This document shows positions 17,480-33,035 of a stretch of 42,792 bases of DNA, piece after piece. Made by a program: the position numbers and the translations under genes. Source of the DNA: a virus; the IMG/VR virus record IMGVR_UViG_3300045988_177530, positions 1 through 42,792 of that record. The stretch is one strand, 5' to 3'. Positions within the stretch are counted from its first letter, which is position 1. Every line of letters begins with the position of its first letter. A model generated the notes under the pieces. It was not told the origin of the DNA, did not search any database, and saw nothing but the letters and a program-made list of their open reading frames with translations.

Positions 17480-18232
17480 TTAGTGGCTAGTGATGTAATT
17501 GTGAATCTTGGTCATGCTCGGATTCCCCATTGCCGGGGGGAACCCGCGTGACTGTTGCTTCGTCACAACGTTCGGCTTGCGAGTGTACAGTACTGGCACG
17601 GTGATTTCTTCCCCGTCCCCATTGTCCACGTTCGCCCATTCCATGTAGCCGACGAAATTGAACAGGGCGGGGATGCGCTGCCCAGACTTCTGTCCCTCAA
17701 AAGACGGAGCAATGAAAACCTCCCCAGTAACCTCACTGCTCTCACGTGCGGAATGCGTGATAGCAATGAATGAAATGTCGGGGGCGTTCAAGAATACGCT
17801 GATCGCCTTCAACAAGGAATCGTATACCGCCCGCCATTTCGTCCAAGTGTCATTCGACACGGCCTCGTAGTGGGTCAGAATGAGTTCCTGGCACTTATCC
17901 AACGTGTCGAACACTACTGTCTTGTAGGGGAATTCTGCACGATTGCGTGCGATATTGTCGCAAAGATTGGCGCAATCAAGCCACTTATCGCAATGCACGA
18001 CAGTAAGGTTTGCAGGGTTCCCCCAATCCCGTACCGGGAGCGTGCCGGATTCGAAATCAACATACAAAACGGGCGACATGTCGTCCACCTGTGACGCCGT
18101 GGCTGCGAGCGAAGTTTTGCCGACGCCACTCACGCCATGAATAAGCATATTGAAATAATTATTCTGTTCCGGGTTCACGACCGTCATTCCGAGACGGGCG
18201 AGAGTGTCTTCGAAAGTCATGTTATGTTTCAC
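17480..18232 (-). CDS. RecA-fold AAA ATPase (Sak4 / AAA_24-like recombination ATPase)
   Basis: 250 aa. Walker A MLIHGVSGVGKTS and Walker B-like TVVFDTLD. Confidence 0.7.
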   Translation of the reverse strand: MKHNMTFEDTLARLGMTVVNPEQNNYFNMLIHGVSGVGKTSLAATASQVDDMSPVLYVDFESGTLPVRDWGNPANLTVVHCDKWLDCANLCDNIARNRAEFPYKTVVFDTLDKCQELILTHYEAVSNDTWTKWRAVYDSLLKAISVFLNAPDISFIAITHSARESSEVTGEVFIAPSFEGQKSGQRIPALFNFVGYMEWANVDNGDGEEITVPVLYTRKPNVVTKQQSRGFPPAMGNPSMTKIHNYITSH

Positions 18233-18235
18233 CTC

Positions 18236-18985
18236 CTAACCGTTCATATTGTAATTTTTGAATGCCTGCGTGTGGCGCTCATGTGAACAGTACCAACATA
18301 GGGGGGACGATTGGAGGCTGTCAACCCCACCGTCATGTGACCTTGCTCTCTTCCAAATGTTTTGGAGTCTCTCCAGAGCCGCGAGCGCAACGTCCTGTCG
18401 CCACGGGAAAGAGAACTCACAAATACTGTTCGGCACTACCTCTACGCTGCAGTCCCTTGGGAGAGCAACAATAGAACAATGTGCTACCTCGTGTCCGATC
18501 TGCGCGAGACCGTACCCGTAGAGCATGATTTGAATATAGTATTTACGAAATTGGCTTCCTGCCGCCGTGTCGGCGAATCGCGGTAGACCATTGTCCCATT
18601 TAATGCCCTTCCGGAATGCGGAAATCTTTTTCCGTGAGAGCAGCTTCCAGTCTAGGACCGTCGCCGCCGCAATATCGAAGCGATCCACACTCCCAGAAAT
18701 ACGCCCATAGTCTTCAAGATCGCATACCCCTACTCTCTGTTCCACTAGAACATTCGGCTCGTTTTTTGTGCGCGATTCCGCGAAAGCATGAAATGCGGTG
18801 CCCAGGAAAGGCGCCAAAAAGGCGCCCGCATCCTTCGTGTCGTGCGGGATCCCGAGGAGTTTGTCGGCAATACAGCGCTCGCAATCGTCCCCGATTTCGC
18901 TCACGCCGATGCGCGTTTGTTTGTCACGCTCGGTCGGGGCGAAAACATTACTGACCGCTGTTGCGGCGGCCGGGCTCAAATTCAA
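18236..18985 (-). CDS. PD-(D/E)XK nuclease, Cas4/RecB-like, with four conserved Cys
   Basis: SEIGDDCERCIADK, GTAFHAF, VDRFD, LDWK, QIMLYGY and CWYCSH. Start uncertain. The full ORF reaches 19123 but overlaps the well-supported upstream gene, so a TTG at 18985 or 18979 is proposed. Confidence 0.65.
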   Translation of the reverse strand: MNLSPAAATAVSNVFAPTERDKQTRIGVSEIGDDCERCIADKLLGIPHDTKDAGAFLAPFLGTAFHAFAESRTKNEPNVLVEQRVGVCDLEDYGRISGSVDRFDIAAATVLDWKLLSRKKISAFRKGIKWDNGLPRFADTAAGSQFRKYYIQIMLYGYGLAQIGHEVAHCSIVALPRDCSVEVVPNSICEFSFPWRQDVALAALERLQNIWKRARSHDGGVDSLQSSPLCWYCSHERHTQAFKNYNMNG

Positions 18986-19214
18986 ATTTCTCCCCTTCCT
19001 GAATTGCGGCGATAGCGGCGAGCCTGACGTCACGCTGGACTTCAATGTCCCCGCTCGCAATATCTTCAATGAAGAATAGTCTTGCGTCGCCGGCCGGCAT
19101 GATTTCATAGACCGTACCGTCAATCTCTTCTGCTCGCATTGCGGCTTGCTCGAGATTCGAGTAGACCCGGTAGTCGCCTTTCTGCTGCGATTCCCATACT
19201 AGGTAGACGCCCAT
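18948..19214 (-). CDS. Hypothetical protein
   Basis: 88 aa, preceded by ATTTAGGGAAGAGAGAGC. Confidence 0.6.
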   Translation of the reverse strand: MGVYLVWESQQKGDYRVYSNLEQAAMRAEEIDGTVYEIMPAGDARLFFIEDIASGDIEVQRDVRLAAIAAIQEGEKFEFEPGRRNSGQ

Positions 19215-19792: not shown

Positions 19793-21187
19793 TTATATGA
19801 GGCCGCTCTCACGCAGACGCTCATACCCCGCCGCCAACCTCGGCTCCACGGCCGTCACGTCAACAGTATTCTCACACTGCAAAAGAAAGCGATTCACCCG
19901 CTTTGTTTGCCCCTTACGATTCAAACGAGCAGACGCCTGCAAATTCAAAATCACACTATTATCCTCACTCAACCAAACCTCAGTATTGCAAACATTCTGC
20001 AGACCGTCAATCCCTTCGGCGGCGGCCGCAATAACGGCGCAAAGAATCCTCGGCCCATCGGGCTTCAAAAACTGTCGCCACTCATCCCGATAATCGCTGG
20101 ACAATTCAACGCTCTGATAGCCAGCATCGGCCAGCCGCTTCCGCAACGGCGCCATGAATTTACGTGAGTGGCACCAAAAGATAACTCTCTCGTCTGACGG
20201 CAAATCAGACAGAATATCGAGGGCGGAGTCAATCTTCGATGACCCACGCTCTTCGAACTCGACACTATCGCCCACGATTTTCAACGGCCCGAGAGTAATC
20301 TGCCTGAGCCTCCCGTCGAGAACGGCGGCGGACGAAGCTACACTAGCCCCACCACCCATAATCGCCAAACGATGATCCACGAATTCCCGATACATTCTCT
20401 TCTGTTCACGCCGCATCCCACAGGCAATACGCTGAACATTTACGGGAGGTAGATCGCCGAAAACTTCACTCCCCCGCATCGCGGACCAATTGTCGCCCAC
20501 GGAATCGCGGAGAGCTCCAGGATCCTTCTCTCCACCGTAAATCCTGGCATACGGGTGCGCCGCAAAAGGATTGAACTGAGAAACGAAAAACTCGTCAGCA
20601 AACCGGTAGAAACTACAGTCGACACTGTCCGGGTTCAGGAATTTGAGTACCCCGTAAATGTTGACGGGCTTATTGCCGGCAGGCGTGCCCGACAGGCCGA
20701 GACGATATTTTGATTTCAACGCCTTCACGGCCCTGAAAGACTGAGTACGGTGATTCGCGATACGGTGCACCTCATCCACGACCACCATATCGAACGATTT
20801 CCTTGAGAAAGAAATGGTCGGCCACTTCCCCGCGTCTACCGCCTTTCCTAGGGAAACCAATAGCTCGAAATTAATGACACACCAACCGTCTTCACCGTCC
20901 AGCATGCTCTCAATGTTGGTGCGCCCCGCTTTAGTGGTGCGAGACAGTACCTTCGCTTCCCGGCCGGTGATGGTCTTGATGCTGGCCTGCCATGACGGGA
21001 TGACGCGCTTCGGACACACAATGATGACCCGTCTGGCCGCGTCGAGTTTTTGCGTGACCCAGATTGCGCCGTATGTTTTGCCGCAGCCGGGTTCCCACGC
21101 AAGTAAAGCACCGCCGCCGCCTCGAATCGCGGCGGCGGCGCGGTTGATTTCTCTTTCCTGCGCCCCAGTGGGGCGAATATTAATCAT
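19793..21187 (-). CDS. SNF2/DEAD-like superfamily 2 helicase
   Basis: Motif I WEPGCGKT, motif II VVVDEVHRI, motif III LSGTPAGN, motif VI QASARLNRKGQTKRV. ATG at 21187. Confidence 0.8.
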   Translation of the reverse strand: MINIRPTGAQEREINRAAAAIRGGGGALLAWEPGCGKTYGAIWVTQKLDAARRVIIVCPKRVIPSWQASIKTITGREAKVLSRTTKAGRTNIESMLDGEDGWCVINFELLVSLGKAVDAGKWPTISFSRKSFDMVVVDEVHRIANHRTQSFRAVKALKSKYRLGLSGTPAGNKPVNIYGVLKFLNPDSVDCSFYRFADEFFVSQFNPFAAHPYARIYGGEKDPGALRDSVGDNWSAMRGSEVFGDLPPVNVQRIACGMRREQKRMYREFVDHRLAIMGGGASVASSAAVLDGRLRQITLGPLKIVGDSVEFEERGSSKIDSALDILSDLPSDERVIFWCHSRKFMAPLRKRLADAGYQSVELSSDYRDEWRQFLKPDGPRILCAVIAAAAEGIDGLQNVCNTEVWLSEDNSVILNLQASARLNRKGQTKRVNRFLLQCENTVDVTAVEPRLAAGYERLRESGLI

Positions 21188-21271
21188 TGAAATTCGTCCA
21201 AACAATCACTAGAAGACAAATGGTGAGCGTGAACGCTAGTAGTGCCACTTGTTTTTCCTCTTTTCCGTACA

Positions 21272-21630: not shown

Positions 21631-22530
21631 TCACATCTCCAGTTGGAGGAGAGACAACGCCTCACCCACGGCCGCACTCACATCACCGCCACACTCCAGC
21701 AACCTCATGCAATCGAAAGCTGTGTGCGCCCTGCCGTCCGCGAGCGGATCATCCACATGATGCGAGAAGACCAGACCACTGTCTAGCATCGTCACACCCG
21801 GGGCCGTGTTGCCGCCACGCACATACCGCCACCGCCGCCCCACCGACTCGTAAGGCCAGCCAAACAAACCGACAAGATCATTAAAACTATACTTTGAATT
21901 GAACTCCCCAATCACACCACCATAGCCGCCATCGGGCACAGAAACCGAAGAAACATCATCATTCCTCTCCTCATATCCTATGTTTCCCAACCATTTATCA
22001 ACATTCAAACGGGCGCCGTCAATAAGCCAATGACGCACCCTCAAACCAAGACGATGCGACGGCAGGAAAAAAGCTCGGGACGCCTCAGCGCACGACCCGT
22101 CCCACTGGGCCACCGGCCCCAACACACTAAAACACGTCCTGCCGATCGCCTCGCATTCCCTCACGGTCATGCTGCGAGTGCACGGCAGAACAACACGAAA
22201 TCGCGGGGACGGGAAAGACGACGACGCCGTCTCCCACACAATGCCGGCAAGATTCGCCGCCCGCATACGGTCCCCGACAAAATCTTTCCTCGACCCATGA
22301 TCCGCATCCAAAACAATCGCCGACCGGGACACGAAATTCCTTTTCTGCCGCCTCCCCCCTGAAAGAATGCCAGCAAAAAAAGCGGGAGCATCATATTTCT
22401 CGCATTTCGAGGGCGCCTCACACAAGGCAGCGAAATCGCTCAGGTTTACGCTAGTAGCACGCCACCCTGTGATAGAGCGAACATTGCCCGCTACCATCAC
22501 AGGGAAACGCGCCCCGAAAACATCACTCAC
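21631..22530 (-). CDS. Putative primase/polymerase-like (AEP-type) protein
   Basis: 299 aa. AIVLDADHG is a DxD-like motif, and RFRVVLP with FFLPSH resembles Prim-Pol / VirE-N-type proteins. Overlaps the DUF3987-like gene by 8 nt. Assignment made by eye only. Confidence 0.4.
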   Translation of the reverse strand: MSDVFGARFPVMVAGNVRSITGWRATSVNLSDFAALCEAPSKCEKYDAPAFFAGILSGGRRQKRNFVSRSAIVLDADHGSRKDFVGDRMRAANLAGIVWETASSSFPSPRFRVVLPCTRSMTVRECEAIGRTCFSVLGPVAQWDGSCAEASRAFFLPSHRLGLRVRHWLIDGARLNVDKWLGNIGYEERNDDVSSVSVPDGGYGGVIGEFNSKYSFNDLVGLFGWPYESVGRRWRYVRGGNTAPGVTMLDSGLVFSHHVDDPLADGRAHTAFDCMRLLECGGDVSAAVGEALSLLQLEM

Positions 22531-24094
22531 TGTACGATGGTTCCGCTATCTGATCCCGCAGAATCGCCTCCACGAGATCATTATCCACAATAGTCCCTTC
22601 CGTCCGGAACTTCACGCCCCGACGAAGAATATACTGCCGATACTCCTCGACACTCCGCGGAGACAAATTCTTCGCCTCCAAAACCTGATACAAACGCGTC
22701 TCAGTCGGCGGATTACTACTGAAATCATCCACCATACGCGTCAAATCCGGAACAAAAACATAGTCGATCATTTTCAACGCGTCAGGCAACCAGAAATCGG
22801 CGGCAAGGCTGAAAGCTTTCCTCACCGCAGACGATGACACGCTCATCTGCTGCTCGAAAAGAGACAGAATAGCGGCCACGCGCATAATATGATTCCCCAT
22901 GCGGTCAACGACCGCCTGCACCGCGCGCTGGAAAGGCGACTCGCGGGCCGCCTCCCAGCACCAAGCCCGCATCGTTTCTACCCAAACATTCCGCGCAGAC
23001 TCGGTCACGGTCATAGTCATTGGCGTGTTGACAGGCCAAAACTCGGTGGCACAAGTGACAGTGCCACGGAATTCGTGCTGCATCATGCCCAGCATTGTTG
23101 AAATGCGCTCGGAAGCACGCTCAACAAAACCATCGCCACCATGCGCGTTCCGGTCATTGTCGGTGACCCATCCGAAAGACGACGGATCAGACCGACGATT
23201 CTCCTCATCCAACGCGAAAAGAATACGCGGCCCCCAGCCCGTCTCAAACAAAGACTGTGGCATATTGTCGACTACGTCGCCGAGAATCCCGGTACCGCAG
23301 AAAGCAAGAGAATGAGGAACCCGCTCACTGTCCGCCCGCCTGACACCATCGTCACCGACACGCACAGACTCGACCGTTTTCCCCGAGTAGACGTCGGTCA
23401 GGAACCCGATGAGCCCGCTACGATAACCCTCCCCCTGTGACGCGGAGTACATGTTCTGCAGTTCGTCTACGAACATGATAGACGCCCCACCAGGACGCTG
23501 CGCCATCCGAAGATTCAAACCCTCAGCCGTAACATTCGACCCGAACAAAACATTCGCCATAAGAGACCGCTCGCACGGGCTATTCCCGATAGTATTCAGC
23601 AAATCCTTACGATCAGCCTCGAACTCGGTGATGCGATTATTGATGCCGTCCCGCTCAGTCCGGTACTCGTCAATATCAATACGCCCGCTTCTCTTTTCCA
23701 GGGATTCCAGGCGACGGTACAGCATGCGGAGTGCCGAATCAACCTCCTGCACCGCTGCCAAAGGCGCCAACGAATCCCACCTGAACGCGCCCACGCAATC
23801 ATCGAAAAAACTACGCACCAAAGACTGCGCCGTCGTTTTCCTCGACAGGGTAGACGCCCCCAGGCAGTGCGAGTACAAAGTCAACGGCACCATACTCTGC
23901 GCGCTCGCCGACAAATGAGTCCTCGCAGACAACGGCGCAGACACCATCGTCAAGAAAGTCGTCCACAAGAAACGGGACGGCGTCTCCGGAGACTTAGACT
24001 GCAAATAGTCAACAATCCTGTCGGCGAACCAATCATAATGCACACCCACATCCGGAGACGCGAACTCGTAATCCGCAATCCTCTCAATACTCAA
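22523..24094 (-). CDS. DUF3987-like putative replicative helicase
   Basis: 523 aa. Degenerate P-loop-like GASTLSRKT and Walker-B-like IMFVDELQ. Typical partner of Prim-Pol domains in actinophages. Confidence 0.4.
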   Translation of the reverse strand: MSIERIADYEFASPDVGVHYDWFADRIVDYLQSKSPETPSRFLWTTFLTMVSAPLSARTHLSASAQSMVPLTLYSHCLGASTLSRKTTAQSLVRSFFDDCVGAFRWDSLAPLAAVQEVDSALRMLYRRLESLEKRSGRIDIDEYRTERDGINNRITEFEADRKDLLNTIGNSPCERSLMANVLFGSNVTAEGLNLRMAQRPGGASIMFVDELQNMYSASQGEGYRSGLIGFLTDVYSGKTVESVRVGDDGVRRADSERVPHSLAFCGTGILGDVVDNMPQSLFETGWGPRILFALDEENRRSDPSSFGWVTDNDRNAHGGDGFVERASERISTMLGMMQHEFRGTVTCATEFWPVNTPMTMTVTESARNVWVETMRAWCWEAARESPFQRAVQAVVDRMGNHIMRVAAILSLFEQQMSVSSSAVRKAFSLAADFWLPDALKMIDYVFVPDLTRMVDDFSSNPPTETRLYQVLEAKNLSPRSVEEYRQYILRRGVKFRTEGTIVDNDLVEAILRDQIAEPSYSE

Positions 24095-28943: not shown

Positions 28944-29014
28944 GTTGGGCCCAACCTATACTCTTAAAAGAGTACTAGAATTAGACACTGTCTAACACAT
29001 CTAGACAGTGTCTA
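28944..29014. promoter_or_regulatory. Cluster of operator-like palindromes
   Basis: GTTGGGCCCAAC (28944..28955). TACTCTT-aa-AAGAGTA just downstream. TAGACACTGTCTA (28982..28994) and TAGACAGTGTCTA (29002..29014) with centres 20 bp apart. Confidence 0.5.
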
Positions 29015-29204
29015 TTTAGGGAATACGTGTTATGACGTAATTAAGGGCACACAGTGTTCAATGTTGAGTACTGTTACCGTTGACAACGAACAGTGTGTGG
29101 TGGGAACAACAAACATTGTGTGATGGATGCAACAAGCATTACATATGATGCTGCACACACACCACCAAGTAAACACACACAAACACAAAGGCGCGTGTCG
29201 TGCT

Positions 29205-29237
29205 ACGTGTGTGCTCGCAGAGCTGCGCGCACACTAC
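29205..29237 (+). repeat. 33-nt hairpin-forming element followed by a polypurine tract, copy 1, upstream of the HNH gene
   Basis: acgtgtgtgctcgcagagctgcgcgcacactac. 29 of 33 nt are identical to 29851..29883. An A/G tract follows at about 29254..29296. Confidence 0.7.
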
Positions 29238-29393
29238 ACGACACACGCCAACCCAAAACAAAAAAGAAGAAAAACAAGAAAAGAAAAAAGAAAGAGTAGT
29301 GTTAGACGGTGGAGGCGCTCGTCTCGCTGACGCTGCGACGCGCCACCACCTAACACAAAACAAGAAAAGCGACAAGAGAAGAGGAGAATAACG

Positions 29394-29738
29394 GTGAGCA
29401 GAACAAGCACGCGAGAACACCGGCAATTCAGAAAACAAGTACTCGCCAGAGCACAAGCCATGGGCATCACACACTGCCCAGCATGCGGAGTCAAACTCCA
29501 ATACAACAATAACGGTAAACGCAAACCCAACAGCGCCGAAGCCGACCACATAATCCCAGCCTCGTTAGGCGGAACCAATCACCCAGACAACGGCAGAATC
29601 CTCTGCGCCAGATGCAACAGCAGACGAGGCAACGGACGAGGAGGCAAAGGAAGAGCACGCCACTACCAAAAAAACGAAGACGAACGAGACAGACTCCCTA
29701 TTGCTGTCATGCCCACCGAACACTCTGACACATGGTGA
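29394..29738 (+). CDS. HNH endonuclease, terminase-associated type
   Basis: GTG start preceded by GAGAAGAGGAGAATAAC. HCPACG ... ADHIIPASLGG ... DNGRILCARCNSRRGN. Confidence 0.85.
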   Translation: MSRTSTREHRQFRKQVLARAQAMGITHCPACGVKLQYNNNGKRKPNSAEADHIIPASLGGTNHPDNGRILCARCNSRRGNGRGGKGRARHYQKNEDERDRLPIAVMPTEHSDTW

Positions 29739-29850
29739 CCCCCCCGCCATTCCAAACACAGAAAGGCGGAACGCGAAAAAGCGAGGAGAAAGGAAGAGAG
29801 AATAGCAAGAGAGCAGCAAGAGACAAGAAACACAATGGTGTTCGGGGATA

Positions 29851-29883
29851 ACGTGCGTGCTCGCGGGGCTGCGCGCGCACTAC
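29851..29883 (+). repeat. 33-nt hairpin-forming element followed by a polypurine tract, copy 2, downstream of the HNH gene
   Basis: acgtgcgtgctcgcggggctgcgcgcgcactac. An A/G tract follows at about 29896..29935. Confidence 0.7.
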
Positions 29884-30585
29884 CCCGAACACCAACAAGA
29901 CAAAGAGAAGAAGAAGGAAAACAGAGAAAGACAAACAACAAGACCACCACACCTTCGCACACACCACCATTCCATCCAACACAAACCATCACCGCCATTC
30001 CACAATGACACAACCCTGTCACAAAACACGCCACTAAACCAACAATGCTGTGACAGCAAACACACTGAAGGGTGGGGTGATGCAAGAAGGCAGGACAATA
30101 CAAGGCGCCAGACCCAACCCGAACACGGGACATCACAACACACCCCCCGTCATTCAACACGGCCACCACGCAAACAGAAAGGGGACACCAATACTAAACA
30201 AGGGGGACACCACACGCAACGGGAGGGCCACCATCACAACACCCGCCCCTTCAACACTATGCCACCCCACCTCGCCATGCCCCCCGCCATTCACGATGGC
30301 CGCCCCCTCCACCACTATGAGGGGGGAGCAGACAAAGGACACCCGTCACACGAACACCACAGACACACACACCACCCACACACCACACACCCGACAGAGA
30401 ATAGTGCACGACACGACAACAGCACCGACGAATACTGCACTGGGAAGAGTAGGACAAGGGCCGGACTACACGCACTGGACGGACCAACAGCACACACCAC
30501 CGCCATTCCACACACCACACACGAGAGGATGGACACCATCCACCCACCCACTCTCACACTATTCACATTCACACAACCAACGAAC

Positions 30586-30685
30586 GATCACGATCAACAA
30601 TGATCAACGATCAATGTTCGATCAACAATCAACGAACAATGAACAATGAACATGATAATGATCAATGATGATGAACATGATCAAC
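30586..30685 (+). repeat. Seven GATC-containing heptamers (GATCAAY/GATCAC) within 100 bp, followed by GAT/ATG trinucleotide runs
   Basis: GATC at 30586, 30592, 30602, 30609, 30620, 30660 and 30679. ATGAACATGAT occurs three times. This is locally the most A+T-rich part of the region. Confidence 0.8.
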
Positions 30686-30749
30686 ATGATGAACATGATG
30701 ATGATTACAACGATGATGATGTGATGCATGACATGCATACCAATACCAT

Positions 30750-30765
30750 GCACCATGCATGGTGC
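30750..30765. promoter_or_regulatory. 16-bp perfect palindrome GCACCATGCATGGTGC
   Basis: Read directly from the sequence. Two further ATGCAT hexamers lie just upstream. Confidence 0.6.
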
Positions 30766-30806
30766 CAACACATGCCACAAAGGCAACACGCAACGCACAA
30801 ACGCAC

Positions 30807-30859
30807 AAAAACGCATAAAAACAAAAGAAATGTTACAAAAACATGCAAAAACATTCAAA
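30807..30859 (+). other. Six helically phased A-tracts; predicted intrinsic DNA bend
   Basis: A-runs start at 30807, 30817, 30828, 30837, 30847 and 30857, a spacing of about 10 bp. Confidence 0.7.
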
Positions 30860-31087
30860 GGCACGAATCAAACAATGGCGTTCAAAAAAACCATGGCAAC
30901 AAAACAAGGCGAACACAAGGGGGGCCCCAAGACAGTAAGGGATCCCTTAAACACGGGACCCATGTCACAAAACAAGACGAGGGTTGGACGAAACGAGACG
31001 CACACCACACAATTTACGTGATGGGGGCCACTCCCCCTCCCCCATCCGGCCACGAACACCCCGAAGGTCTGCCCATCCCTCCCTGCT

Positions 31088-31228
31088 TGTGGAAAACCCT
31101 GTGGATAACTCCAGTAACCCAGACCACAGTGTGACTGCCATCATGTGGAAAACTCCCCAACCTGTGGAAAACCCTGTGGAAAACTCAGACAGCTTGTGGA
31201 AAACCCTGTGGAAAACCCCGTGGGAACA
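31088..31228 (-). repeat. Array of seven DnaA-box-like 9-mers plus one degenerate copy, all in one orientation
   Basis: TGTGGAAAA (reverse complement TTTTCCACA) at 31088, 31144, 31163, 31175, 31195 and 31207. TGTGGATAA (reverse complement TTATCCACA) at 31100. Degenerate gtgggaac at 31220. Confidence 0.6.
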
Positions 31229-31258
31229 TGACGAACATCACAGCATATAATAATAAAC

Positions 31259-31540
31259 ATGACAACCCACACAAACACCACAATCACCGTATACGAACCA
31301 AACAGCCCCGCACCAATCACAGACGCCACAAACACAGGCAACCCAACACTCATCCGCCAAGCACTCGCACACAAAATCGCCACCGTCATAGACGACCCAC
31401 GAACAGGCGACACAGCACTCACAAAACTCACCGCACAACTCATACAAATCACAGACCAACTCGCCACAACACAAAACGAAAACACACAAACACCCCCCCC
31501 CGACATTCCAAACGAAACACAAACCTGGGACGGCATCTAA
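31259..31540 (+). CDS. Hypothetical protein; possible small terminase subunit
   Basis: 93-aa ORF ending 1 nt before the terL ATG, with plausible helical segments. It lies in a stop-poor region and has no clear ribosome-binding site, so coding status is uncertain. Confidence 0.4.
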   Translation: MTTHTNTTITVYEPNSPAPITDATNTGNPTLIRQALAHKIATVIDDPRTGDTALTKLTAQLIQITDQLATTQNENTQTPPPDIPNETQTWDGI

Positions 31541-31541
31541 A

Positions 31542-33035
31542 ATGAGCGAAAAACACCTAAGCGAAATCGCCGCCCACCTCACCCTCCCAGAAAACATCAC
31601 ACACACCGCCTGGCCGCCAGTCCAACGCCGCCTCCAAGAAATGCAATACCCCCTCGACGTCTGGCAACAAGACTGGCTCAAAGCAATCCTCGCAAAACGA
31701 AATGACGGCCACTACGCCGCCAGCATCGACGGAATCCAAGCCAGCATCCCCAGACAGGTCGGCAAAACATACACAATCGGCGGCCTCACATTCGCACTCG
31801 CCACCCTCCACCCAAATTACTTCGTCCTCTGGACCGCACACAGAACACGCACCGCAGACGAAACATTCAACGACATGAAAGGAATGGCCCAAATACCCGA
31901 CATCGCCCCGTACGTGAATAAAATACGGCAAGCAAACGGACAGCAAGCCATCCTCTTCAATAACGGATCACGCATTCTCTTCGGTGCCCGTGAAGGCGGA
32001 TTCGGGCGTGGATTCCACGGCGTAGACATGATCCTCTTCGACGAAGCCCAGATTCTCGGCGCAGCCGCACTAGACGACATGATCCCCGCCACAAACACGG
32101 CGCCCGACCCGCTCATCATCAAAATCGGGACACCACCAAAACCAAAAGACCCATCCGAAGCATTCAGCGAATTCCGTAACCTCGCCCTGCAAGGCGAAAT
32201 AAAAGACGGCCTCTACCTCGAACTAGCCGCCGACTACGACGCTAACAGCAACGACAGAAAACAATGGGAAAAAGCCAACCCATCATACCCGCGCCGTACG
32301 CCTGAATCCGCCATTCTAAGAATGCGGCGGCAGCTCGGAGAAGAATCATTCCGACGTGAAGGCCTCGGAATATGGGACCGCGCCAACGACAGGCTCGCAA
32401 TAGACCCCGTCGCTTGGAATACTGCCACAATACGGCCAGAAAACACCCCCGGTGGCATGCGGTGGTGTGCTGCGATCAGGTTCGCACCCGACGGATCAAC
32501 CTGCGCCCTAGCCAGGGCAGGACACAAGCCCAACACGCCCACACACGTCGAACTCTGTACACACCAAGGCGTGCGCCGCATGAGTGAAGGCACACAATGG
32601 ATAATCGACTACATTGCGGACACAAAAGACAGATGGGCACAAATCATTGTAGACGGAAAATACGGTGCCGGAGACACAATCGAAAGACTGAGAGCAATCG
32701 GAGTACGCCCGCAAGTCATCATCACGCCCACAATCACGCAAATCATAGACGCCTACAGCATGCTAGACGCCTCACTACGCGAAAACACAATCACCCATTT
32801 GGACGACATGCAATTGAGGACTGAGGCCGCCTCTGCGACGCCGCGCCCAATCGGAACGTCCGGAGGATGGGCTCTACAGGCGCCCCCTGGCGTCACCGTA
32901 GCCGGCCTAGAAGCCTGCACGCTCGCAATGTGGGCCGCACGCACAACAAAAAGAAGACCCCGTTACAGGCCCTATGATAAAATCGAAAACGCCAATAGTA
33001 ATAATGATCGCGGCGGCGGAGTATTGTTCCTATGA
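31542..33035 (+). CDS. Terminase large subunit
   Basis: 497 aa. Walker A IPRQVGKT and Walker B VDMILFDEAQ. Positioned upstream of the portal gene. Confidence 0.85.
   Translation: MSEKHLSEIAAHLTLPENITHTAWPPVQRRLQEMQYPLDVWQQDWLKAILAKRNDGHYAASIDGIQASIPRQVGKTYTIGGLTFALATLHPNYFVLWTAHRTRTADETFNDMKGMAQIPDIAPYVNKIRQANGQQAILFNNGSRILFGAREGGFGRGFHGVDMILFDEAQILGAAALDDMIPATNTAPDPLIIKIGTPPKPKDPSEAFSEFRNLALQGEIKDGLYLELAADYDANSNDRKQWEKANPSYPRRTPESAILRMRRQLGEESFRREGLGIWDRANDRLAIDPVAWNTATIRPENTPGGMRWCAAIRFAPDGSTCALARAGHKPNTPTHVELCTHQGVRRMSEGTQWIIDYIADTKDRWAQIIVDGKYGAGDTIERLRAIGVRPQVIITPTITQIIDAYSMLDASLRENTITHLDDMQLRTEAASATPRPIGTSGGWALQAPPGVTVAGLEACTLAMWAARTTKRRPRYRPYDKIENANSNNDRGGGVLFL

Follow-up and report, generated by a model that had tools for sequence, protein, structure and literature searches.

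Introduction

Binding sites for the replication initiator DnaA (DnaA boxes) are known from bacterial chromosomes and from phage and plasmid replicons. The datA locus of E. coli acts through IHF-dependent hydrolysis of DnaA-ATP, and both datA and the box clusters of B. subtilis are chromosomal. In P1 oriR and in iteron plasmid origins no more than tens of bp separate the boxes from the iterons and from an AT-rich region. A different kind of repeated site is found in phage lambda, where cosB (R3-I1-R2-R1) occupies the interval between cosN and Nu1 and has an IHF site among the R sites. In T5-like phages the injection-stop (iss) region contains eight DnaA boxes, with pairs separated by 3 bp, and it was proposed, as a proposal only, that membrane DnaA arrests injection there (bioRxiv 10.1101/866236). 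That preprint was the only item recovered from the literature combining DnaA boxes with cos or terminase. The present study concerns an array of seven such boxes in a phage genome, IMG/VR virus record IMGVR_UViG_3300045988_177530, the whole of which (42,792 nucleotides) was analysed and is called the window below. The array lies between cos, the physical genome end, and terS, the gene for the putative small terminase subunit.

Judging from sequence comparison, this array quite probably binds the DnaA of the host. Boxes of the same kind were found in the same slot in a phage lineage with unrelated terminases. An earlier reading of the DNA, referred to here as the original prediction, had noticed the boxes; the cos end, the terS promoter and a longer repeat unit were not part of it.

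The box array and its variation

The features of the array and of its immediate surroundings are as follows.

31040..31069: right-end side of cos, CCCCATCCGGCCACGAACACCCCGAAGGTC, with the junction between 31069 and 31070; conserved in ~35 relatives
31070..31087: first 18 nt of the physical left end, TGCCCATCCCTCCCTGCT
31088..31096, + strand: DnaA box 1, TGTGGAAAA, conserved in relatives
31100..31108, + strand: DnaA box 2, TGTGGATAA, perfect consensus (CCTGTGGATAACTC)
31125..31133: small palindrome CACA-G-TGTG (CACAGTGTG), between boxes 2 and 3
31144..31152, + strand: DnaA box 3, TGTGGAAAA
31163..31171, + strand: DnaA box 4, TGTGGAAAA
31175..31183, + strand: DnaA box 5, TGTGGAAAA
31195..31203, + strand: DnaA box 6, TGTGGAAAA, part of a pair that varies in copy number
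31207..31215, + strand: DnaA box 7, TGTGGAAAA, ending 30 nt before the -10 hexamer
31219..31227, + strand: degenerate eighth copy, CGTGGGAAC, matching at 6/9 positions, 12 bp after box 7
31246..31251, + strand: putative -10 hexamer TATAAT of a promoter for a leaderless terS mRNA, proposed from its conservation
31259..31540, + strand: putative small terminase subunit (TerS), 93 aa, PHROG 1459 'terminase small subunit', E 1.2e-4
31542..33035, + strand: large terminase subunit (TerL), Terminase_6N

The motif TGTGGAWAA occurs eight times in the window, seven times on the + strand at 31088-31215 and once as an unrelated copy on the - strand at 22581. Across 100 dinucleotide-preserving shuffles of the whole window the mean was 0.53 copies and the maximum four, and none of the shuffles (0/100) reached eight. 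When one mismatch was allowed, 18 matches were found in the whole genome against 14.7 expected, which is background outside the array and makes the array the only box cluster in the genome; no boxes were found in the other 1.3 kb of its non-coding DNA. The original prediction of seven same-orientation consensus boxes upstream of the terminase genes was therefore confirmed, together with its three head-to-tail pairs, 12 bp start to start (31088/31100, 31163/31175 and 31195/31207), and its degenerate eighth copy. Two of its measurements needed adjustment: the dense array covers 128 bp rather than 129 bp, and the distance of 30 nt given to the terS start agrees with the end of the degenerate copy (31 nt before the ATG) but not with that of the last perfect box (43 nt). 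The degenerate copy lies about where a -35 element would sit and is not kept as a box in relatives. No inverted repeats carrying the boxes were found in the array, and the full repeated unit reads C-Y-TGTGGA(A/T)AA-C-Y-C.

No near-identical phage was found in GenBank. IMG/VR contains ~60 near-identical genomes with TerL proteins 94-99% identical to that of the window. Forty relatives with 263 boxes were compared. The 9-mer varies at one position only, with A in 197 boxes, T in 64 and C in two (0.75/0.24/0.01), and this is the position known as degenerate in DnaA boxes. The number of boxes is five in 11 genomes, seven in 22, nine in 2, and six or eight in the remaining five. Boxes 1-5 and the palindrome are conserved in the window lineage, while further pairs have been gained or lost; the palindrome reads TCACAATGTGA (TCACA-A-TGTGA) in relatives and is kept in all except L022, where another box pair replaces it. 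The length of the array changes in steps of ~31 nt, roughly three helical turns. The distance from cos to the -10 hexamer is mainly 143/144, 174-176 or 205/206 nt (31 nt apart), and only a few genomes depart from these values. Between pairs the spacer sequence is hypervariable, whereas the boxes are intact, with a mean top-base frequency of 0.985 in box columns vs 0.923 in non-box columns.

The physical genome end

The first nucleotide is exactly 31070 in nine independent IMG/VR contigs, which come from at least four metagenome datasets, and several more contigs start within a few nt of it. The determined right end of Rothia phage Spartoi (CCCCCATCGGCGGGCCAGACGAACACCCCCCGGCGAT) has a homologue in the sequence just to the left of this position, CCCCCATCCGGCCACGAACACCCCGAAGGTC. 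Taken together, these two observations place the cos junction between 31069 and 31070, with box 1 beginning 18 nt inside the left end. Full-length contigs starting at 31070 extend 15-37 nt past it at their other end, indicating that cos-bridging reads were present, and one contig opens with a 103-nt fold-back copy of 31059-31161. The remaining contig ends of near-identical genomes are scattered or lie inside repeats. Some of them, at 31141, 31157, 31178 and 31195, raised the question of whether contig ends here are assembly breaks at repeats, an explanation that was ruled out because the mode is a unique position, 31070, which is upstream of all repeats and agrees with the determined end of Spartoi.

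The terminase proteins and the putative terS promoter

TerL is 42-50% identical to its counterparts in cos actinophages, namely Rothia phage Spartoi, Arthrobacter phages MrSmee and AbbyDaisy, P. freudenreichii phage G4 and mycobacteriophages TM4 and ZoeJ. It is 57-63% identical to the members of its best-matching group; the presence there of Actinomyces bowdenii and Schaalia hyovaginalis prophages points to a host within the Actinomycetaceae. TerS is an outlier of PHROG 1459, with 15-23% identity to its relatives, and has lost the RDLAALSRR motif; it contains 4 K+R residues vs 9-17 in relatives.

Leaderless mRNAs are common in actinobacteria, and terS may well be expressed from one. The sequence CATATAAT, which holds the TATAAT, is kept in the 40 relatives amid variable flanks. 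TATAAT is 7 nt from the terS ATG in 39/40 genomes and no usable Shine-Dalgarno sequence is present, the combination being a signature of a leaderless mRNA. The distance from the end of the last box to TATAAT is likewise fixed, at 29-30 nt in 38/40 relatives, whether these have 5, 7 or 9 boxes, although the bases in between diverge.

Identity of the boxes

All seven sites (7/7) match TTWTNCACA / TTATCCACA exactly. The base at position +9 is C in 100% of the phage boxes and that at position -1 is never G; in other boxes of dnaA-linked chromosomal clusters the frequency of C at +9 is 0.61 and that of G at -1 is 0.08, and the 12-bp spacing is common. The 22-mer TGTGGAAAACCCTGTGGAWAAC, which represents a tandem pair, was scanned against one genome per bacterial species and was found at 120 or more loci in a wide range of bacterial phyla. 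In 30 of the 120 matches listed the 8-kb locus encodes a DnaA-type Walker A motif (GxGKTHL), and in 25 of these 30 the pair is co-directional with dnaA, mostly 100-180 nt upstream of its start. Many of the dnaA-linked loci come from a single family (Pyrinomonadaceae), so the counts are not fully independent, and no Actinomycetaceae origin is among the matches listed. By its flanks, its pair spacing and the variation it tolerates the array looks like genuine DnaA boxes, as the original prediction had proposed from the consensus; the occurrence of the same 22-mer with its 3-bp-spaced boxes beside dnaA in many bacteria points the same way.

The 22-mer is also present in ~60 unrelated viral contigs ranging from 30 to 68% in GC. 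Its settings there include bidirectional box clusters, a few coding sequences (PVENPVEN) and, in loci L090, L117, L125 and L170, positions beside iterons inside replication genes. None of the 48 window proteins resembles DnaA or a helix-turn-helix (HTH) regulator in Pfam and PHROGs, and the sole HTH-type match among the phage proteins scanned was HTH_28, in a small-terminase-like open reading frame of the phage contig L072.

Several further box clusters were observed in the course of these comparisons. Microvirus mar31 (L317, MZ089777), a 5.2-kb single-stranded DNA phage, has eleven perfect tandem copies of TGTGGAAAACC with an 11-bp period in an intergenic region (locus 1494-1614), and one further isolated box. 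Microbacterium phage Blab (L316, MZ322018) has a 3-bp-spaced box pair, GTTATCCACAGGATTTTCCACAGGG, at 344-364 within its 575-nt non-coding left end, and the pair is found at the same place in four sister phages. The unrelated contig L072 has a bidirectional cluster of ~11 DnaA boxes at 1700-1960, between an Sf6-type terS and terL, and is another association of boxes with packaging genes. Contigs from Clostridia (L268, 7458-7750) and Myxococcales (L269, 5600-7200) metagenome-assembled genomes contain arrays of 13-19 DnaA boxes in a single orientation, which in L268 recur every 21 bp.

Terminase relatives without boxes

The four closest terminase relatives examined (TerL 59-62% identical) have no box and no repeats at this position. 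In box-less relatives, which comprise the Actinomyces/Schaalia prophages and related contigs, the gap between cos and terS is 50-110 nt, and terS has a Shine-Dalgarno sequence and no TATAAT. Their lack of both elements suggests that the array and the promoter arrived together, and on this comparison the array is, apparently, a recently acquired accessory module at the cos/terS junction.

The conserved form of the left end, AGCGnnATCTCTCCCC-N3-4-T5-7CC, ending in five to seven T and CC (L182-L187, L195, L318-L321), is common to Rothia, Arthrobacter, Propionibacterium and Actinomyces/Schaalia phages and, more loosely, to those of Mycobacterium. The bases after the T run vary, being CCACC in cluster K, CCCAA in Rando14, and CCTCG, CCCGA, CCCAA and CCGCT in the four closest relatives. 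In Spartoi, MrSmee, AbbyDaisy and G4 a single TTTTCCACA, in the opposite orientation, lies at 19-21 nt from the left end. As a general rule for cosB in this family TTTTCCACA was rejected, given that closer relatives and cluster K conserve T5-7CC only.

The same slot in an unrelated lineage

A second lineage with such an array is represented by contig L068 and ~20 relatives from many metagenomes. Its TerL has no detectable similarity to that of the window, and its TerS (142 aa) belongs to a different family, being Terminase_7-like at an E value of 4.9e-4, below the Pfam cutoff. At least eight contigs of this lineage have their first nucleotide in common (CCCTTCTCGCT...), a point that longer contigs cross. 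Between this end and terS are 7-12 same-orientation TGTGGA(A/T/C)AA boxes, a mixture of TGTGGAAAA, TGTGGATAA and TGTGGACAA, all pointing away from the end; the first lies 32 nt inside the lineage's own physical end and the last ~25 nt before the terS ATG. A few further boxes, in both orientations, are found 45-115 nt across cos.

As in the window lineage, the boxes are not shared by all terminase relatives. Those with 80-82% TerL identity (TerS 53-55%) have the cos end in common and no boxes, and in ~45 more distant relatives (34-50% identity) the 1 kb upstream of terL is free of boxes. In the L068 lineage cos is separated by an HNH gene from a set of GGGACGCG iterons; in L325 and L326 ~12 such iterons were observed 570-820 bp from cos, at the 3' end of, and just after, a gene for a RepA-like helicase, and they are probably the origin of this lineage.

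It is very unlikely that two unrelated TerS proteins evolved DnaA specificity independently, and a shared host factor would explain the pattern. The use of the same slot in an unrelated lineage looks like a recurring link of phages to host DnaA that has so far gone undescribed.

The question of an origin and the right-end repeat zone

The original prediction favoured a host-DnaA-dependent origin or a DnaA sink. A classical DnaA-dependent origin at the array is not supported, since no AT-rich unwinding element adjoins the boxes, relatives do without the array and the phage has a primase and a helicase of its own; in addition the array is only 18 nt from the genome end. The flanks of the boxes, consisting of cos DNA and the terS promoter, have a GC content of 0.48-0.72. 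The nearest AT-rich DNA, at 30600-30900 (GC 0.30-0.37), is 190-490 bp away beyond cos and occurs in all relatives. The GATC and AT-rich patch that had been taken to accompany the boxes therefore exists, but on the far side of cos and 370-500 bp from the array. Cumulative GC skew does not reach an extremum at the array, and a strong local A+C bias confounds this measure.

The right-end region has several features of its own. The AT-rich block at 30580-30720 consists of GATCAAY, GAACAAT and GATGAACAT repeats and is persistent and fast-evolving, its arrangement differing in each relative. GATC occurs 4-10 times in the 620 nt before cos of relatives, vs ~2 expected. The GATCAAY/GAACAAT block could be the iterons of the real origin or an element for packaging termination. 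A perfect 16-bp palindrome, GCACCATGCATGGTGC, follows at 30750-30765, and after it come phased A5 tracts (30790-30890) that form a probable intrinsic bend.

Genome layout

The phage genome in the window, ~42.7 kb long, was assembled as a circle, as a 55-bp terminal direct repeat indicates. The + strand carries the structural genes, which begin with terS at 31259, terL at 31542 and the portal gene at 33032 and continue across the window end to ~7889, and the - strand carries the early and replication genes. Genes recognized outside the terminase region include the following.

17480-18232, - strand: AAA_24 protein
18236-19123, - strand: exonuclease
19793-21205, - strand: SNF2 helicase
21631-22530, - strand: primase
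22523-24094, - strand: DUF3987 helicase
29394..29738, + strand: HNH endonuclease, the last gene before the right genome end (Pfam HNH/HNH_5, E 2.5e-10)

HNH proteins are the usual partners of such cos terminases, and the order HNH-cos-terS is also found in relatives; in the 1.5 kb 3' of the HNH gene no credible gene was recognized. The early genes also include those for a RuvC-like resolvase and for a dCTP deaminase/dUTPase-like protein (Pfam DCD, E 1.8e-33). Scans of the array region for tRNA genes and Rfam families gave no match. This human-associated phage is very common: its TerL cluster comprises 1765 members at 90% identity.

The top strand of 29000-33000 shows an extreme excess of A and C over G and T, with an AT skew of ~+0.5 and a GC skew down to -0.36; the non-coding DNA at 29739-31258 contains 563 A, 476 C, 302 G and 179 T. 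This A+C bias extends over coding and non-coding DNA on both sides of cos, and might stem from mutation that is biased by strand near the genome ends. The same bias accounts for the composition of TerS, 51% of which is T, N, Q, P and H.

Discussion

Given the fixed spacing between the last box and TATAAT, and the occurrence of the same pair co-directionally upstream of dnaA (40-180 nt), the array may be a DnaA-responsive control region. The reading tentatively preferred here is that it is a host-DnaA-binding module that controls the packaging or late operon. Such a module would have been inserted into the short non-coding gap between cos and terS together with a new promoter (TATAAT and a leaderless terS). 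Host DnaA would be expected to occupy the boxes, assembling head-to-tail on phased, co-directional sites as in front of bacterial dnaA genes, and the assembly might determine how active the terS promoter is, 30 nt downstream. Our guess is that the promoter would be repressed while free DnaA is plentiful and relieved as replicating phage genomes dilute it; activation by DnaA is equally compatible with the data. Each copy of the genome would also withdraw 5-9 DnaA molecules from the host, and titration of this kind is an unavoidable side effect of any such reading. DnaA binding, promoter activity and the direction of regulation are all inferred from the arrangement of the DNA.

Several observations weigh against control of the late operon by DnaA. 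High-GC actinobacteria are generally reported to prefer TTGTCCACA, a variant that is rare here (2/263 boxes), and the host, a probable member of the Actinomycetaceae, may have a box preference of its own. The promoter was proposed from conservation only and has no recognisable -35 element; a sigma-70 promoter scan did not call it, being silent because no -35 match was found. There is no room for a promoter downstream of the array in the L068 lineage, whose last box directly adjoins the Shine-Dalgarno sequence and the ATG. What the two lineages share is closeness to cos and terS and not promoter geometry, and a role in packaging or at the genome end would fit this equally well. Finally, the fixed spacing could arise from the gain and loss of pairs inside the array.

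Most of the other explanations considered also involve DnaA and differ in what its binding would achieve. Were the array a DnaA sink, it would titrate the initiator as phage genomes multiply and stop initiation on the host chromosome, its position being incidental. The 5-12 consensus-type boxes per genome, their variable copy number, the dispensability of the array in relatives and the dense same-orientation arrays of very different phages, such as the 11 tandem copies of Microvirus mar31, are in keeping with this. A sink needs no fixed place, orientation or phasing, however, whereas in this phage only 18 nt separate the array from cos and 29-30 nt separate it from the -10 hexamer, its length changes in ~31-nt steps, the other 1.3 kb of non-coding DNA is free of boxes, and two lineages chose the same slot. 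The sink put forward originally thus stands as a rival, an unlikely one, which leaves the fixed spacing to the terS promoter unexplained. Somewhat less likely is an auxiliary part in replication, in which the boxes, the AT-rich repeats and the A-tract bend would be brought together across cos by circularisation as a DnaA-assisted origin. The AT-rich repeat zone persists 190-490 bp left of cos in all relatives, the L068 lineage has its GGGACGCG iterons 570-820 bp from cos after the RepA-like gene, and the tandem pair stands beside iterons in four other phage replication genes (L090, L117, L125 and L170). Against this, no AT-rich unwinding element is found in the tens of bp next to the boxes, cumulative GC skew lacks an extremum at the array, and the phage has its own primase, DUF3987 helicase and accessory replication proteins; close relatives, moreover, would be expected to have kept an origin that was essential. 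Slightly more doubtful, but a serious rival all the same, is a role at the genome end, where DnaA beside cosN would act as an architectural or recognition partner of terminase, or would hold or protect the left end. It would then supply, in at least two unrelated lineages, the recognition or bending that the degenerate and almost uncharged TerS no longer provides. The array does occupy the position of cosB, 18 nt (window) or 32 nt (L068) from the end and in the same orientation in two unrelated terminase systems; the L068 lineage has boxes across cos as well; the window TerS has lost the basic motif of its family and retains only 4 K+R; and 3-bp-spaced box pairs are found in the non-coding terminal regions of Blab and of T5-like phages (bioRxiv 10.1101/866236). 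Searches of the literature on DnaA boxes with cos or terminase nevertheless gave no precedent for DnaA in packaging, and boxes are dispensed with in relatives that have homologous terminases and the same cos end.

Two further explanations dispense with DnaA. The main alternative named in the original prediction was that the repeats are recognized by TerS, as a classical cosB whose motif only resembles a DnaA box. Direct repeats between cosN and terS are what lambda cosB has, a single TTTTCCACA near the left end of Spartoi, MrSmee, AbbyDaisy and G4 recalls such a site, and the high divergence of the window TerS could mean a changed specificity. The element conserved throughout the family is T5-7CC and not the box, however; repeats are missing from the closest relatives, a lineage whose TerS and TerL are unrelated has this motif in the corresponding position, and relatives of that lineage 80% identical (TerS 53-55%) are without it. 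The motif furthermore matches chromosomal DnaA-box pairs down to flanks and spacing, and the four basic residues of the window TerS, though suggestive only, point the same way. This alternative is accordingly disfavoured and considered improbable. The boxes might also be operator sites for a phage-encoded regulator that shares the specificity of DnaA, and many early open reading frames without a recognisable family leave room for one. We regard this as very improbable: no scanned phage protein matches the DnaA C-terminal domain and only one gave an HTH-type match (HTH_28, in L072), no other box cluster is present in the genome, for example at early promoters, and the motif is common to unrelated phages and bacterial dnaA regions.

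Phages appear to have repeatedly installed DnaA-box arrays between the physical genome end and the first packaging gene. Nearly every bacterium has DnaA, so a cis-element that reads it would be portable between hosts. If DnaA occupancy gates late expression or packaging, the array would be a simple sensor of the replication status of the host or of the phage's own copy number, and it would at the same time be a built-in means to starve the host origin of initiator. If the role lies in packaging, the bacterial replication initiator would be a cofactor for the recognition or cleavage of cos. The natural variants with 5, 7 and 9 boxes, together with the box-less relatives, are ready-made controls.

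Among described systems, E. coli datA and the B. subtilis clusters are similar in having dense consensus-type boxes outside an origin, and differ in that the phage array is tied in position to cos and a promoter. P1 oriR likewise combines DnaA boxes on a phage or plasmid replicon with repeat or iteron-like zones within a few hundred bp, but here the boxes are 370-700 bp from the repeat zones and on the other side of cos, with the HNH gene between them in the L068 lineage. The likeness to the iss region of T5 lies in 3-bp-spaced box pairs in non-coding DNA near a genome terminus and away from the replication origin. The T5 boxes, however, are in the IRC/IRD inverted repeats of the long terminal repeat, several kb from the end and with no cos, whereas those of the window all point in one direction, beside terS, in a genome with cos ends instead of terminal repeats. 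With lambda cosB the locus has in common a cos site, a ~150-bp block of repeated protein-binding sites and a small-terminase gene ~190 nt from the end, and in both an extra element stands among the repeats, the palindrome in the window and the IHF site in lambda; unlike those of lambda, the repeats of the window are sites of host-initiator type, which close relatives lack and a lineage with unrelated terminases has. The DnaA-box clusters upstream of bacterial dnaA, at 40-180 nt from its start, differ in having an unwinding element or dnaA/dnaN context, where the phage array has terS as its downstream gene and abuts a genome end. They agree with it in the 9-mer, its flanks, the 3-bp-spaced head-to-tail pairs and the orientation with respect to the downstream gene, and the very 22-mer of the phage pair stands beside dnaA in 30 of the 120 matches listed.

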